From the NCBI RefSeq assembly GCF_001677475.2, contig NZ_CP015229.1: a stretch of 64,000 bases of DNA. One strand, 5' to 3'. The stretch is from Escherichia coli (GTDB taxonomy: Bacteria > Pseudomonadota > Gammaproteobacteria > Enterobacterales > Enterobacteriaceae). The position numbers and the translations under genes were made by a program. The notes below the pieces were generated by a model, which was not told where the DNA came from, made no database searches, and saw only the letters and a program-made list of their open reading frames with translations. Shown here piece after piece: positions 57,181 through 64,000 of this stretch (position 1 is the stretch's first letter; each line of letters opens with the position of its first letter).

Positions 57181-59121
57181 TTAAACCGAGTATCTTTGTG
57201 AATATTTTTTCACGTTAGTATCAAGTGGCTGTGAGGACGCGAAAAAATCCCCTTGCCCACCTGTAACACCGCGCTGAATCAGGGTCTGCCACTCGCTTCG
57301 CGAACGCACGCCGGTGGCGTAAACCTGGGTGCTGGTCCCGGAGCAGGCTTCCACCAGGCTTTGAACCAGCAGCTGGTTCTCCGTTCGCTTCTCAATGTTT
57401 CTGACCAGCCCCGGATGGAGCTTGAGTAACTCAACATTAAGTTCTTTGATCCAACTGGTGCTAACCAGCGTCAAACCAGCCTGGTTGACGGCTACCCGTA
57501 CCCCTAAAGCATTCACTAAACGAATAACAGGTTGTAAACGACTGATATGTTGACCTACATCGGCCTCTGCAAGTTCAATAATTATGCGTTTTCGTTGTGA
57601 TTTTTCACATTGCATTAACGTATCGCGCAGCCAACGCTGAAAACGCGGGCGAATCAGCGACTCAACGGTAACCTGAATCGCCAGATTTTCCTCCGGCCAG
57701 TAACGCAATAGTGGAATCAGACGGCTGATTTGCAGGCGGTCATACTCTTCCGATAAGCCAAACTGCAAGACCATCGGCATATACTCCGCCGAGCTAACCT
57801 CTTCGTTACCATCGAAGATGCGGCACATGAGTTCGCGATGATGAACCTGACCTTCGCGAGTAACCGCCGGTTTTTGATAAAGGCGCGGGCCGCCGCGACT
57901 GAGCATTTGCTCGATAAGCGTACGCCAGCGAACATTACCGCGTCCTTTTTCAGGCAACGAGTCATCGTAAATAGCCCAGCTATTGCCGCCCTGCAATCCC
58001 GCATTACGCGTGGCAGACTCTGCATGTTCCATTACCTGCTCGGTATCCTGACCACTACGCCAGGCACAGATACCAATGTGGATCATATCGTCGCGATCGA
58101 GCATTTTATTGTTCGGCAAGGTATCGACGGCTTTGATTAACTGACTGGCTATGCTCTCAGCCTCTTTTAACGTCCGGTGGGGCAACAGCGCAGCAAAATC
58201 ACTGCGGTGGTAACGCGCCAGCAGTGCGCCAGGGTAGCGCATCATAAATGTCGACAGCAGATTCGTCAGAGAGAAGAACTGTTCTTCAACCTGGCTGTGC
58301 CCCCAGGTATCACTCAACATATTGAAATCCGGCAGACGAATCATCATCACGATCCCGTGGGTACCTACTTTCTCTTGATCTTCCAGTAACGTTGCTAACT
58401 GATTATCGAAAAAGAGTCGGTTATTGAGGCCGGTTTTCATGTCCTGGGCGGCATAAGAGCGGATCAGCGTATCAAGACGGCTGTGTTGTTCGCGTGCGTT
58501 CTGAATTTCACGAAGCAGCGTATCCAGCGCACTGCTGGTTCTGGGCGGCCATTCATAGATGGTTCCCAACACATTAGAGCCACGCTCACCGTTTAAGATA
58601 CGAGTAGCCCGGGTTTCCAGCAATTCTTGCCCGGCAAGTTGCCGTTGTAACCAGCGTACCGCCAGGAAGAGCATAAGAATGATAAAGCCAATCGCCCCCG
58701 TGAGCGGCGCGGTGGTCATCAACGAATGGAAATAGTTGCCCATCGGATCCTGATAAACCAGACGCAGCGACATCCCCGGATGCTTTATCAACGGAACGCT
58801 CAGTTCGCGAAACAGATCGCTGGTGCCAACCGGACGATAACTACCATTTCTGGCGAGGGTATAAACCTGTTTATCACCATGCAGCAGGTCTACACGAACG
58901 ATATCTGCTGACACCATTAATTCGGTAATTTGTGGCCTTAATGCGCTGAAGTCATTCGACACAAGGTGGGTATCAATCGCCGTCGCCACCGCCTGAACGC
59001 GATGACTAAACTTATACTGAATGGCGTTGTAGAAACTTAGCGAACAGCCCAGCAAAGTCACAAAAATTGTTAACCCGGTGAGCAGCGTAACAAAGGCCGA
59101 AAATTTCGTCGTTAATCTCAT
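57181..59121 (-). CDS. csrD: CsrD, GGDEF/EAL-domain regulator of CsrB/CsrC sRNA turnover
   Basis: ORF track 57181..59121(-), 646 aa with N-terminal TM segments and degenerate GGDEF and EAL regions. Confidence 0.93.
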   Translation of the reverse strand: MRLTTKFSAFVTLLTGLTIFVTLLGCSLSFYNAIQYKFSHRVQAVATAIDTHLVSNDFSALRPQITELMVSADIVRVDLLHGDKQVYTLARNGSYRPVGTSDLFRELSVPLIKHPGMSLRLVYQDPMGNYFHSLMTTAPLTGAIGFIILMLFLAVRWLQRQLAGQELLETRATRILNGERGSNVLGTIYEWPPRTSSALDTLLREIQNAREQHSRLDTLIRSYAAQDMKTGLNNRLFFDNQLATLLEDQEKVGTHGIVMMIRLPDFNMLSDTWGHSQVEEQFFSLTNLLSTFMMRYPGALLARYHRSDFAALLPHRTLKEAESIASQLIKAVDTLPNNKMLDRDDMIHIGICAWRSGQDTEQVMEHAESATRNAGLQGGNSWAIYDDSLPEKGRGNVRWRTLIEQMLSRGGPRLYQKPAVTREGQVHHRELMCRIFDGNEEVSSAEYMPMVLQFGLSEEYDRLQISRLIPLLRYWPEENLAIQVTVESLIRPRFQRWLRDTLMQCEKSQRKRIIIELAEADVGQHISRLQPVIRLVNALGVRVAVNQAGLTLVSTSWIKELNVELLKLHPGLVRNIEKRTENQLLVQSLVEACSGTSTQVYATGVRSRSEWQTLIQRGVTGGQGDFFASSQPLDTNVKKYSQRYSV

Positions 59122-59272
59122 CCTTGTGTTAACTCCGATAGTGAGGAAGCGGGCATACTAGCAAATCAGATTTATCTCGCAATTTATTGCGCTTCATCGG
59201 CTTTGCTTTTCCATTAGCGAGTATAGTCTTCAGAAATTATTTTCCAATCCATCATGCACATGAGGACCACTT

Positions 59273-60247
59273 ATGCAGGCGTTACTTTTAGAACAGCAGG
59301 ACGGCAAAACTCTCGCATCAGTACAGACTCTGGACGAAAGTCGCCTGCCGGAGGGCGATGTCACGGTTGATGTTCACTGGTCGAGCCTGAACTACAAAGA
59401 TGCGCTGGCAATTACCGGTAAGGGAAAAATCATCCGTAATTTTCCGATGATTCCTGGGATCGATTTTGCCGGAACTGTACGCACCAGCGAAGATCCGCGT
59501 TTTCATGCCGGTCAGGAGGTGTTACTCACTGGCTGGGGCGTTGGTGAAAACCACTGGGGGGGGCTGGCGGAACAGGCGCGAGTGAAAGGTGACTGGCTGG
59601 TTGCCATGCCGCAAGGGCTGGACGCACGTCAAGCAATGATTATCGGTACTGCCGGTTTTACCGCCATGCTGTGTGTGATGGCGCTGGAAGATGCCGGTGT
59701 TCGCCCGCAGGATGGGGAGATTGTCGTGACGGGTGCCAGTGGTGGCGTCGGCAGTACCGCCGTGGCGCTGCTGCATAAGTTGGGTTATCAGGTCGTTGCC
59801 GTTTCTGGTCGCGAAAGTACCCATGAATATCTGAAAAGTTTAGGAGCCAGCCGTATTCTCTCTCGCGATGAGTTTACCGAATCCCGTCCTCTGGAAAAAC
59901 AACTCTGGGCTGGGGCAATTGACACCGTTGGCGACAAAGTGCTGGCGAAAGTGCTAGCGCAAATGAATTACGGCGGCTGCGTGGCGGCCTGTGGTCTGGC
60001 GGGTGGTTTTACTCTGCCAACCACGGTCATGCCATTTATTCTGCGTAATGTCCGTTTACAGGGGGTGGATTCAGTGATGACGCCACCAGCACGCCGCGCA
60101 CAAGCCTGGCAGCGACTGGTCGCCGATTTACCGGAATCATTCTATACCCAGGTGGCACAAGAGATATATCTGGCAGAGGCACCGAAGTTTGCCGAGGCCA
60201 TCATTAATAACCAGATCCAGGGTCGCACGCTGGTGAAGGTTAACTAA
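59273..60247 (+). CDS. acuI: AcuI (YhdH), acrylyl-CoA reductase (MDR family)
   Basis: ORF track 59273..60247(+), 324 aa; NAD(P)-binding GASGGVG motif. Confidence 0.93.
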   Translation: MQALLLEQQDGKTLASVQTLDESRLPEGDVTVDVHWSSLNYKDALAITGKGKIIRNFPMIPGIDFAGTVRTSEDPRFHAGQEVLLTGWGVGENHWGGLAEQARVKGDWLVAMPQGLDARQAMIIGTAGFTAMLCVMALEDAGVRPQDGEIVVTGASGGVGSTAVALLHKLGYQVVAVSGRESTHEYLKSLGASRILSRDEFTESRPLEKQLWAGAIDTVGDKVLAKVLAQMNYGGCVAACGLAGGFTLPTTVMPFILRNVRLQGVDSVMTPPARRAQAWQRLVADLPESFYTQVAQEIYLAEAPKFAEAIINNQIQGRTLVKVN

Positions 60248-61224
60248 CCATTTAGCAAGGATTAATAAGAGAGGGAACTCATTTTGAAATCATTATTCAA
60301 TCGGTTAACGGGAAAAGCGGTTAGCCGGACAGCTTTCGTCGAACATCTTGGTCATGAAGTTGTACAACATCATCCAAACTGGAAAGTCATGATTTCGACA
60401 GACCATACATTGATGCGCATTGAAACTCCACTAAACAGCCATTATTGATACGCCTCCGTCGCCTGTTAGGTTTATGGTGCTTTGCCTGGGCGACGCTACG
60501 CTTAACCTGTTACTGATTTCTGGTACCATGGGGTGAATAATCTGATTTTATTTGCCTACAAATTAACCACTCGAACGTATTTGATGCTGAGCATTGTCAG
60601 ACGGTTGATTTTGCGTGCTTTAGCATTCACATCTATCCAGACGATGAAGTGAAAATTGCGTAATCCTCAGCAACCGCTGCGTAATGTCGTCTATCTTGTC
60701 GCGATCCTGGCATCCCTACATTATTTGTGGTCTGTGAAGATTATCTCATTGCAGCCCCTCATCTTCGCAGGGCTGGCTTTACAGCTTTTAGCCTTACGTT
60801 ATAAGAAGTTCCGTCGATGATGGCGCTAATTTCGTGAGTTGTGCGGCTTGTTGCAAATTACACGGTGTTGAAGGTTATTTACATGTTAGCTGTTGATTAT
60901 CTTCCCTGATAAGACCAGTATTTAGCTGCCAATTGCTACGAAATCGTTATAATGTGCGACCTCGTTCTCCCTGACGCAGTTTTTGCGCTGCGGAAAAGGT
61001 GACATTGGCGCAACGAAGGTATATTTTGTTTTTTGCCGGAGGATAGCAGCAGATCGCTGCACAATGTCCGTCAAGTCTAACATTGACACTCTGGGGCAAA
61101 ATAGACCGGCGTCCCGGCCTGCTGGAATTTATCGCTATGCATACAGCTGTCGGGGCATACGCTTTACAGACGGCGGTGAAACGCCTGTCACAATCACACT
61201 AAACAAAGAGTACGGAACCCACTC

Positions 61225-61695
61225 ATGGATATTCGTAAGATTAAAAAACTGATCGAGCTGGTTGAAGAATCAGGCATCTCCGAACTGGAAATTTCTGAAG
61301 GCGAAGAGTCAGTACGCATTAGCCGTGCAGCTCCTGCCGCAAGTTTCCCTGTGATGCAACAAGCTTACGCTGCACCAATGATGCAGCAGCCAGCTCAATC
61401 TAACGCAGCCGCTCCGGCGACCGTTCCTTCCATGGAAGCGCCAGCAGCAGCGGAAATCAGTGGTCACATCGTACGTTCCCCGATGGTTGGTACTTTCTAC
61501 CGCACCCCAAGCCCGGACGCAAAAGCGTTCATCGAAGTGGGTCAGAAAGTAAACGTGGGCGATACCCTGTGCATCGTTGAAGCCATGAAAATGATGAACC
61601 AGATCGAAGCGGACAAATCCGGTACCGTGAAAGCAATTCTGGTCGAAAGTGGACAACCGGTAGAATTTGACGAGCCGCTGGTCGTCATCGAGTAA
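61225..61695 (+). CDS. accB: AccB, biotin carboxyl carrier protein
   Basis: ORF track 61225..61695(+), 156 aa; biotinylation motif [10 protein letters not shown]. Confidence 0.97.
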
Positions 61696-61705
61696 CGAGG
61701 CGAAC

Positions 61706-63055
61706 ATGCTGGATAAAATTGTTATTGCCAACCGCGGCGAGATTGCATTGCGTATTCTTCGTGCCTGTAAAGAACTGGGCATCAAGACTGTCGCTGTGCA
61801 CTCCAGCGCGGATCGCGATCTAAAACACGTATTACTGGCAGATGAAACGGTCTGTATCGGCCCTGCTCCGTCAGTAAAAAGTTATCTGAACATCCCGGCA
61901 ATCATCAGCGCCGCTGAAATCACCGGCGCAGTAGCAATCCATCCGGGTTACGGCTTCCTCTCCGAGAACGCCAACTTTGCCGAGCAGGTTGAACGCTCCG
62001 GCTTTATCTTCATCGGCCCGAAAGCAGAAACCATTCGCCTGATGGGCGACAAAGTATCCGCAATCGCGGCGATGAAAAAAGCGGGCGTCCCTTGCGTACC
62101 GGGTTCTGACGGCCCGCTGGGCGACGATATGGATAAAAACCGTGCCATTGCTAAACGCATTGGTTATCCGGTGATTATCAAAGCCTCCGGCGGCGGCGGT
62201 GGTCGCGGTATGCGCGTAGTGCGCGGCGACGCTGAACTGGCACAATCCATCTCCATGACCCGTGCGGAAGCGAAAGCTGCTTTCAGCAACGATATGGTTT
62301 ACATGGAGAAATACCTGGAAAATCCTCGCCACGTCGAGATTCAGGTACTGGCTGACGGTCAGGGCAACGCTATCTATCTGGCGGAACGTGACTGCTCCAT
62401 GCAGCGCCGCCACCAGAAAGTGGTCGAAGAAGCACCAGCACCGGGCATTACCCCGGAACTGCGTCGCTACATCGGCGAACGTTGCGCTAAAGCGTGTGTT
62501 GATATCGGCTATCGCGGTGCAGGTACTTTCGAGTTCCTGTTCGAAAACGGCGAGTTCTATTTCATCGAAATGAACACCCGTATTCAGGTAGAACACCCGG
62601 TTACAGAAATGATCACCGGCGTTGACCTGATCAAAGAACAGCTGCGTATCGCTGCCGGTCAACCGCTGTCGATCAAGCAAGAAGAAGTTCACGTTCGCGG
62701 CCATGCGGTGGAATGTCGTATCAACGCCGAAGATCCGAACACCTTCCTGCCAAGTCCGGGCAAAATCACCCGTTTCCACGCACCTGGCGGTTTTGGCGTG
62801 CGTTGGGAGTCTCATATCTACGCGGGCTACACCGTACCGCCGTACTATGACTCAATGATCGGTAAGCTGATTTGCTACGGTGAAAACCGTGATGTGGCGA
62901 TTGCCCGCATGAAGAATGCGCTGCAGGAGCTGATCATCGACGGTATCAAAACCAACGTTGATCTGCAGATCCGCATCATGAATGACGAGAACTTCCAGCA
63001 TGGTGGCACTAACATCCACTATCTGGAGAAAAAACTCGGTCTTCAGGAAAAATAA
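61706..63055 (+). CDS. accC: AccC, biotin carboxylase
   Basis: ORF track 61667..63055(+) trimmed to [14 protein letters not shown]... (449 aa). Confidence 0.97.
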
Positions 63056-63146: not shown

Positions 63147-64000
63147 CTAACGGTAGCCTGCAATTTCCGCTTTCAACGCGCTCATTTCAGCATCGCCATC
63201 AACAATTCCCAGCTCAAAGCAGTATTTCTTTGTTTCCCCTGGCTCTATAAAGGGCAGACGCCCCTGCGCTCGTTCTTTATCACGACCGTCAGGAAAACTA
63301 TTGCTGACCTCCAGCCCCATAACATATTCACCCGCGCCTAAATTTTTCCACTGGATAAAGTTGGGTAGCTGCATGGTGTCGAATTTCTCGTAAATTCCCC
63401 ACCCCAGTTCAGCGTTCACCAGCGCAATTTTACTCATCCCCTGACTGTCGCTATTCAAGGTGAGATAGTAAACCTGCTCGTCAAAACCGGGCTGTGGGGT
63501 ACAAATCTCCAGATGACTGGTTAACCCTTCCGCCGCATGCGGAGTTCGTGGCGTTACGCTTTTAGCCGACAGCAAGATTTCTGCCTGTGGCGATAATAAA
63601 GGCCAGCCGTAATTAAAGTGATAAAGAATTTGCAGCGGCTGGCGGGTGAAACCATGATTAGTCACCTCGTCTTCAATGCGCAGCACATTTTCGCCATAAC
63701 GGCAGCGAATGGTCCTTTCCAGCGTCAGATTTTCACCGAACAATCGCGTTTCCCGTACTTTGCCATTGATGACAAATTCAATGCCGTCGTCGGTCCGTTC
63801 TGTGCGATACCCCACCTCTTCTGCTGGAGTCGCAGCCAAACGCCCATGTAACCCCAGCGTTTCTCCTTCATCCTCACAGGGCGTGCCAATGTAGCTAAGT
63901 CCGCAGGTAGTCAGTAACCCCGCGTAAAAGCTACGTAAAAACCCGTTGCCCTGAGACTCGAAAAAAGCGGGGGCGACAATGCCGTTGGGGGTGATAAAAG
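63147..64000 (-). CDS. Hypothetical protein, possibly galactose-mutarotase-like/DUF4432-type; partial, with the 5' end beyond the window
   Basis: Track ORF 63147..63839(-) is the tail of a longer frame: I translated the minus strand by hand through to position 64000 and found no stop. Not a K-12 gene at this position (K-12 has yhdT/panF on the plus strand after accC). Family assignment is from motif impression only. Confidence 0.6.
   Translation of the reverse strand, partial: FITPNGIVAPAFFESQGNGFLRSFYAGLLTTCGLSYIGTPCEDEGETLGLHGRLAATPAEEVGYRTERTDDGIEFVINGKVRETRLFGENLTLERTIRCRYGENVLRIEDEVTNHGFTRQPLQILYHFNYGWPLLSPQAEILLSAKSVTPRTPHAAEGLTSHLEICTPQPGFDEQVYYLTLNSDSQGMSKIALVNAELGWGIYEKFDTMQLPNFIQWKNLGAGEYVMGLEVSNSFPDGRDKERAQGRLPFIEPGETKKYCFELGIVDGDAEMSALKAEIAGYR

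Follow-up and report, generated by a model that had tools for sequence, protein, structure and literature searches.

The stretch of DNA between acuI and accB in Escherichia coli is very probably a product of gene decay, in which the relics of three genes (a DUF1444-like gene, msrQ and aroQ) surround one live regulatory region, that of accBC. The window that we analysed is a stretch of 64,000 nucleotides of E. coli. In it, the sequence and the list of open reading frames place the end of acuI at position 60247 and the start of accB at 61225, so that the gap measures exactly 977 bp, the length that the initial annotation had given as approximate. The gap is likewise 977 bp long in K-12, of whose sequence the window carries a strain variant (about 97% identical), and it is kept at 95–99% identity in 5,425 of the 5,426 complete E. 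coli genomes. It is preceded by csrD (minus strand) and acuI (59273–60247) and followed by accB and then accC. The features recognised in this region are the following.

60248–60283, plus strand: spacer leading from the stop of acuI to the start of yrdF', with a Shine-Dalgarno-like GAGAGGG about 8 nt 5' of the TTG
60284–60426, plus strand: yrdF' (K-12 b4697), first 47 codons of a DUF1444-like gene, placed by offset from the K-12 annotation
60427–60829, plus strand: yrdE' (K-12 b4646), relic of msrQ codons ~67–199 (C-terminal two-thirds)
60830–60892, plus strand: spacer downstream of the msrQ relic, poorly conserved (68% identity to Citrobacter)
60893–60960, plus strand: conserved (aroQ-)accBC promoter block of 68 nt, from the promoter scan and cross-genus conservation
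60961–61063, plus strand: first part of the leader, corresponding to the ancestral aroQ 5' UTR, from the start at 60961 and leader alignments
60975–60992, plus strand: probable 5' hairpin, from RNA folds
61064–61154, plus strand: aroQ' N-terminal relic, with the ATG at 61064 and about 9 recognisable codons, then decayed sequence
61155–61202, plus strand: aroQ' C-terminal relic, last 15 codons (61155–61199) and TAA
61203–61224, plus strand: aroQ–accB spacer of 22 nt with the accB ribosome-binding region
61225–61695, plus strand: accB, given for context from the ORF list and the K-12 annotation

No intact gene lies within the gap, in agreement with the initial annotation, which had seen no credible protein-coding ORF there. 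Its description of the gap as non-coding holds to that extent, but about 550 bp consist of two pseudogene relics that are annotated in K-12, and the leader appears to be a relic of aroQ. Its statement that only short ATG frames are present is right for ATG starts, but among the ORFs of at least 25 aa it passed over two 54-aa TTG ORFs (60284–60448 and 60656–60820) and a 39-aa GTG ORF (60533–60652), all of which are open pieces of the two pseudogenes. The 89-aa ORF that it had noticed overlapping the accB leader is indeed present (60983–61252) and has no Pfam match. The direct repeat TGCGTAAT does occur twice, at 60657 and 60678, but only at chance level: about 7 pairs of repeated 8-mers are expected in 977 bp (977^2/2/4^8), and each copy falls on Leu-Arg-Asn codons when read in the frame of the decayed msrQ. 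A terminator scan of the gap found none.

Farther along the window, downstream of accC, a 230-aa ORF is found on the minus strand (63147–63839). The equivalent position of strain 8178 carries a minus-strand 'aldose 1-epimerase family protein', and in K-12 and PCN033 accC leads directly to yhdT, so that this segment looks like a strain-variable insertion.

Two gene relics upstream of the promoter

The ORF of yrdF' enters the msrQ sequence in a frame other than that of msrQ and ends at 60448, which gives 54 aa; the junction between the two sequences was located by blastn at 60423/60424. In strain 23CRST009, the same TTG opens an intact 276-aa gene, named 'DUF1444 domain-containing' by PGAP, and the 60248–60283 spacer is also found 5' of the intact gene in strains of this second type (variant B). 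When the intact protein was compared with the window by tblastn, 44 of its first 48 residues were identical (92%, E 6e-29). The window and 23CRST009 have two blocks in common by blastn (60200–60423 and 60528–61260), between which the window contains 104 bp (the piece corresponding to MsrQ 69–95) vs 859 bp in 23CRST009. Searches of the 5,426 E. coli genomes with the private segments of each type assigned 4,749 genomes to the window type and 670 to the intact-yrdF type (88% vs 12%), and the two types are essentially mutually exclusive.

The intact 276-aa protein aligns end-to-end with DUF1444 (Pfam PF07285, profile 15–254 of 264) at 17.2 bits, the gathering score being 23.8, and with NCBIfam PRK13668 at 22.3 bits against 221. 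The 54-aa yrdF' ORF of the window gave no Pfam DUF1444 match; indeed, none of the separate ORF pieces of yrdF' and yrdE' gave a Pfam match, the pieces being too short. Homologues of intact YrdF are confined to Escherichia and a few metagenomic sequences. One of the latter (63% identity) has as neighbours genes with Pfam matches to KfrA, to Aca2/YdiL and, weakly, to ResIII; such surroundings, like those of a plasmid or phage, suggest a mobile origin of yrdF.

Some separate observations concern yrdF. A third structure of the region, with an 84-aa ORF containing ambiguous bases, was seen in E. coli O157:H7 TR01 (L008, 2361–2615); it matches only 10% of the variant-B private segment and may be a recombinant or an assembly artefact. 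A hairpin in variant B was considered as a yrdF terminator and rejected, being the decayed 5' coding region of msrP. The 12-aa C-terminal extension that is specific to the MsrQ of the Escherichia hiuH locus (...KKLRSLFNRLRKQVHNKLSV) resembles the N-terminus of YrdF (LKSLFNRLTGKAV), the places compared being the K-12 msrQ 3' end (L006:4562–4619) and window 60284–60310. We rejected homology between this tail (LRSLFNRL) and the YrdF start (LKSLFNRL), for which tblastn gave an E of 0.17 and blastn no support; the likeness, which is not significant, could be the footprint of an msrQ::yrdF junction left by the move of msrPQ.

The RefSeq record of K-12 MG1655 has both pseudogenes between yhdH (acuI) and accB, and if this annotation is transferred by offset, the second relic, yrdE', occupies window 60427–60820. 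In tblastn, residues 69–95 of K-12 MsrQ matched 60433–60513 with 89% identity, up to a TGA at 60514–60516, and residues 101–195 matched 60530–60814 in a different frame with 66% identity (joint E 3e-40). Two further in-frame stops are found, at 60650–60652 and, prematurely, at 60818–60820. The MsrQ of strain E69 also matched the relic in tblastn, and comparison with the 199-aa form of MsrQ places the ancestral stop at 60827–60829 (FRR*WR* vs FRQWWR*). A full-length MsrQ frame (about 199–211 aa) is thus absent, with codons 1 to ~66 missing, one frameshift and three stops. Against the NCBIfam MsrQ model NF003831, with the frameshift gap and one stop of the query filled with K-12 residues, yrdE' scored 98.7 bits (E 3e-28, profile 69–193), its truncation keeping it under the equivalog cut-off of 130 bits. 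Of the three histidines that we take to be the heme ligands of MsrQ (His91, His151 and His164), the first two are changed to Arg in yrdE' (TLHLTSY to TLRLTCY and QQLHNFVY to QPLRNVVY) and His164 is kept. In many strains PGAP describes yrdE' as a frameshifted, incomplete 'sulfoxide reductase heme-binding subunit YedZ / cytochrome b family protein'. yrdE' is a non-functional member of the MsrQ family. As for msrP, which is present in relatives, tblastn with MsrP found no match in the gap.

We then looked at the position of these genes in other bacteria. A 24-nt pattern of the accB promoter, searched against species-representative genomes, returned 53 Enterobacterales loci, and msrP-msrQ lies directly 5' of the promoter in every one of them with enough stored flank. 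acuI adjoins msrP in most of the retrieved loci, and csrD is directly next to msrP in a few. The genera concerned include Yersinia, Serratia, Erwinia, Brenneria, Citrobacter, Klebsiella, Raoultella, Atlantibacter, Kosakonia, Buttiauxella, Trabulsiella and Yokenella; the order in a Citrobacter genome is mreB-csrD-acuI-msrP-msrQ-accB-accC-yhdT-panF. msrP and msrQ are also intact at the accB site of 'E. coli strain E69', which, with 90.6–93% DNA identity to the window, is a distinct Escherichia lineage. None of the 5,426 E. coli genomes has intact msrPQ at this site; all of them carry msrPQ in the order hiuH-msrP-msrQ-zinT, with about 86% identity to the genes of E69, together with the yrdE' relic. 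The identity of yrdE' to E69 msrQ (77.8%) is nearly equal to that to the K-12 hiuH-locus msrQ (76.5%), meaning that only synteny, not sequence, separates a relic of the ancestral copy from a relic of a duplicate.

The undeleted arrangement, acuI-yrdF (77% identity)-msrP, is found in a Logan contig from a relative (L068). In the minority type of E. coli, what follows yrdF is the ribosome-binding site of msrP with its start codon and a decayed remnant of about 30 codons (73% over 91 nt, E 1e-10); there, about codon 30 of msrP is joined to about codon 97 of msrQ. In the window type, yrdF breaks off at codon 48 and msrQ resumes at about codon 67. Neither form could have given rise to the other, so E. 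coli lost its syntenic msrPQ operon at this site in two independent deletion events. The minority arrangement is the one found in E. albertii. The scan with the promoter pattern gave one Escherichia genome and zero Salmonella, and the order and timing of the deletions therefore rest on few lineages.

Other copies of msrPQ were encountered. Two metagenome contigs (L010 and L011; P0002) encode an intact 196-aa MsrQ whose last 44 residues are identical to yrdE'; their DNA is E. coli-like through the promoter and is followed by a divergent leader, and they come either from an uncultured lineage of Escherichia in which the allele is live or from a low-coverage (0.84x) chimeric assembly. The 170-kb plasmid NZ_CP102245.1 of E. 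coli O7:H15 carries msrP-msrQ (73293–74859) with 89.7% identity to the E69 chromosomal copy, and it is closer to E69 than the E. coli chromosomal msrPQ is (~86%). The contig CACSKA010000008.1 (L062), labelled Chryseobacterium sp. 18061, contains an enterobacterial csrD-acuI-msrPQ-aroQ-accB locus nearly identical to that of 'Citrobacter sp. 18056' from the same study, and is probably a mislabelled or contaminated assembly.

The accBC promoter and its leader

The best sigma-70-like site of the promoter scan, CTGCCA-16-TATAAT (60926–60953), shows 10 of 12 matches, with the −35-like CTGCCA at 60926–60931 and the −10 TATAAT at 60948–60953. The promoter block is 100% identical to that of Citrobacter and near-invariant out to Yersinia and Serratia, and the invariant sequence in its upstream part includes CTGATAAGACCAG. 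The invariant CTGATAAGACCAGTATT (60908–60924) carries a CTGGTC half-site on the other strand, which we take to be reminiscent of FadR operators. Activation of accBC by FadR has been proposed (PMC11602165).

In the SMRT-Cappable-seq data (Yan et al. 2018, PMC6131387), a forward transcript assigned to b3255|b3256 is listed under two conditions with the coordinates 3405172–3407310 (or 3407308). With an offset of 3,344,211, K-12 position 3405172 corresponds to window 60961, 8 nt past the −10 box, which gives a leader of 264 nt. The two hexamers are thus accompanied by a mapped start 7–8 nt downstream, as looked for in a sigma-70 promoter. The long leader and own promoter that the initial annotation had ascribed to accB are borne out by this site and this published start. 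A leader of about 300 nt has reportedly been described, against 264 nt by SMRT-Cappable-seq. The SMRT-Cappable-seq entries listed include none in 34044xx–34048xx or 34050xx, and the rows listed in the Cappable-seq supplement (PMC4782308) include none for the gap region.

The leader itself contains the ends of another gene. AroQ residues 136–150 matched the window in tblastn with 93% identity (E 4e-7), and this C-terminal relic is 94–100% identical at the nucleotide level to Citrobacter and strain E69. Among the eight sequences of Escherichia and Citrobacter compared, the 22 nt that follow it (61203–61224) do not vary (22/22), and in most other Enterobacteriaceae they differ by at most one single-base indel. 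The distance from the promoter to accB is bimodal, a short form of 281–294 nt being found in Escherichia, Citrobacter and Klebsiella grimontii, and a long form of 606–760 nt elsewhere. The extra DNA of the long form encodes a 150-aa protein, AroQ (type II 3-dehydroquinate dehydratase), that matches Pfam DHquinase_II (PF01220) at 201 bits and TIGR01088 aroQ at 207 bits. When 12 sequences were aligned, the E. coli leader corresponded to the aroQ UTR, ATG and C-terminus minus an internal ~314 bp, and the aroQ Shine-Dalgarno GGAG was GCAG (window) or GAAG in the short forms aligned. The AroQ catalytic domain is not there, the E. coli relic comprising only residues 136–150 and a decayed N-terminus; its position is that of aroQ, with the same promoter, UTR, stop and spacer to accB (12-sequence and 95-nt upstream comparisons). 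What remains of aroQ in E. coli would now serve only as the accBC leader.

K. grimontii has the short leader, and yet aroQ is present in a Raoultella and in an uncultured Klebsiella sp. contig (L024), a pattern meaning that the aroQ deletion was recurrent or transferred. In some Yersinia and Serratia loci (L015, L016, L026, L038, L042, L049 and L058), the distance from promoter to accB is 742–760 nt vs about 619 nt; the extra ~125–140 nt lie between aroQ and accB and in most cases carry the motif GGGTATAATTGC.

The initial annotation had proposed to check conservation across Enterobacterales, and the promoter block and the ends of the leader did prove constrained, but the upstream DNA drifts and its place is taken by msrPQ. 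Identity to Citrobacter is 65% in yrdE', 68% in the spacer after it and 100% in the promoter block; it falls to 83% in the aroQ 5' UTR and 66% in the aroQ N-terminal relic, and rises to 94% in the C-terminal relic and 100% in the spacer to accB, accB itself being at 90%. Within E. coli, a divergence of about 5% in yrdE' contrasts with 98–100% identity in the adjoining spacer, the promoter block, the leader and accB. By this profile, the relics that precede 60890 look neutral, as does the middle of the leader, and the promoter and the final 70 nt have the look of functional sequence. Two elements of the leader 5' UTR, GGTGACA and GGTATATTTTG, are invariant in 46 sequences.

As to RNA structure, the whole leader folded no better than its shuffles (z = −1.27), and RNAalifold gave no consensus structure for the 46 leader sequences, probably owing to shifts in hairpin register between clades. 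A hairpin at +15 to +32 (60975–60992) recurs with different sequences in most Enterobacteriaceae and in Serratia; in Yersinia it is weak (mean z = −1.2). A permissive E-value scan of 59000–62000 with Rfam returned only a sub-threshold match to RF02764 Ysr190 at 60928–61027 (25.3 bits, E 0.59, gathering score 66); the Yersinia homologues of this region score 125–128 bits. In Yersinia similis, a match to Rfam Ysr224 (134 bits) was also seen just upstream of acuI (L022:436–542, minus strand).

Alternative readings and proposed history

The initial annotation had envisaged a discrete transcript or a structured RNA 5' of the promoter, and this idea gained no support. The covariance-model check that it had suggested found nothing in the upstream 650 bp, where we saw no Rfam family and no convincing conserved structure, nor any internal start site among the listed SMRT-Cappable-seq entries; the neutral-like divergence of the region and the msrPQ genes that stand in its place in relatives also count against it. 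More broadly, 60248–60890 might encode some unrecognised functional product, either an sRNA or a small protein (the 54-aa yrdF' or the hydrophobic 60656–60820 ORF). Indeed, the yrdF' ORF is open, with a Shine-Dalgarno-like sequence 5' of it, in the five window-type strains checked (5/5), 60656–60820 encodes a membrane-like segment, and the region is retained in nearly all E. coli. However, each of the two 54-aa ORFs is a piece of a larger gene found intact elsewhere, the tail of yrdF' shows several non-synonymous differences between strains, yrdE' diverges far more than its neighbours, and 12% of genomes have other DNA in place of 104 bp of the region. Given also that Rfam and the start sites listed are empty here, we regard such a product as very improbable. 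Even less credence is due to the view that the E. coli lineage never had aroQ, the ends of the leader being regulatory and aroQ having been inserted in the other Enterobacterales. The occurrence of the short form in several genera (Escherichia, Citrobacter and one Klebsiella) would fit such a history, but aroQ is found at this position in most Enterobacteriaceae and also in Yersinia, Serratia, Erwinia and Brenneria, which are deep outgroups, and this makes deletion, not insertion, the parsimonious event. E. coli moreover keeps the aroQ ATG in a conserved context and an in-frame 15-codon C-terminus with the same stop, and it is specifically the Shine-Dalgarno that is mutated in the short forms aligned; the current distribution of aroQ favours deletion.

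A different question is whether the conserved parts of the leader are a structured cis-regulatory RNA, for instance the target of AccB autoregulation, and not merely a relic. The last 70 nt are 94–100% conserved even where aroQ is dead, GGTGACA and GGTATATTTTG do not vary, the 5' hairpin recurs with different sequences, and accBC is autoregulated by the AccB N-terminal domain according to reviews (PMC3896788, PMC11602165). On the other side, the z-score of the whole leader is unremarkable, no consensus structure emerged, Yersinia has only a weak form of the hairpin, the leader gives no Rfam match above threshold, and the constraint could equally reflect DNA-level or translation-initiation signals. 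A structured RNA is therefore conceivable here, though we lean against it. With similar reserve, we put forward 61155–61224 (about 70 nt) together with GGTGACA/GGTATATTTTG as a possible cis-element for accBC translation, mRNA stability or AccB autoregulation. If true, this role would explain why pieces of a dead gene are near-invariant while the rest of the relic drifts.

Gene decay around a live accBC regulatory region remains the reading that we favour. From the observed homologies, synteny, variant frequencies, conservation profile and published start site, we infer the following order of events. The ancestral locus would have been acuI-msrP-msrQ-[promoter]-aroQ-accB-accC. In the lineage of Escherichia and Citrobacter, an internal deletion of ~314 bp would have killed aroQ, whose promoter, 5' UTR, start codon and last 15 codons would survive as the 264-nt accBC leader. 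The DUF1444-like yrdF would then have been inserted between acuI and msrP in the Escherichia lineage. In E. coli, the second msrPQ copy at the hiuH locus would do the work, and the copy next to accB would have been destroyed twice independently. Today, accBC is transcribed from 60961 by the conserved promoter. The stretch from 60248 to ~60890 would be inert and drifts, and strong constraint acts on the promoter block and on the 70 nt that directly precede accB. We call the relics inert because they drift and because the entries listed in one start-site dataset include none in them.

The relics yrdF' and yrdE' were already known from the K-12 annotation, and the aroQ origin of the leader is apparently a modest addition. 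The aroQ relic is not noted in the K-12 record, in the PGAP annotations sampled or in the literature found, and literature searches on yrdE/yrdF, on msrPQ with accB and on aroQ with accB/accBC gave nothing on the origin of the region. The case is one of ordinary reductive evolution, mostly known and of little wider importance. It nevertheless offers a historical explanation for the long accBC leader, which would be what remains of aroQ, and the split of this leader into a drifting part (61064–61154) and strongly constrained parts leaves 70–170 nt to target in work on accBC autoregulation. The locus also records the relocation of msrPQ in Escherichia, and its two deletions, which still segregate in E. 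coli (88% vs 12%), make a usable phylogenetic marker.

Comparison with known loci and families

With respect to K-12 yrdF (b4697) and yrdE (b4646), the relics of the window lie at the same locus with the same boundaries, and nothing essential differs. What is added here is the origin of the relics, the intact yrdF in 12% of genomes and the end of homology at 60829. Compared with MsrQ (YedZ; Pfam PF01794 Ferric_reduct), the heme-binding membrane subunit of the methionine sulfoxide reductase MsrPQ, yrdE' has 66–89% amino acid identity over residues 69–195 and stands where msrQ stands in relatives, ~100 nt upstream of the accB promoter; unlike MsrQ, it is without the N-terminal third and without msrP, it is frameshifted with 3 stops, and it has Arg in place of His91 and His151.

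In Yersinia, Ysr190 (Yersinia sRNA 190) coincides with the homologous promoter and the beginning of the aroQ leader (L022 3550–3651, 128 bits). The E. coli match is at the homologous position, and only its promoter part aligns well. As the model begins upstream of the −10 box, this family probably describes a promoter-plus-leader region, not an independent sRNA.

Finally, the aroQ-accB-accC operon of other Enterobacterales has in common with E. coli its promoter, the motifs of its 5' UTR, the context of the aroQ start codon and the last 15 codons of aroQ. E. coli differs from it by the absence of ~314 bp of the 453-bp aroQ, the whole catalytic core included, and by the mutated Shine-Dalgarno.
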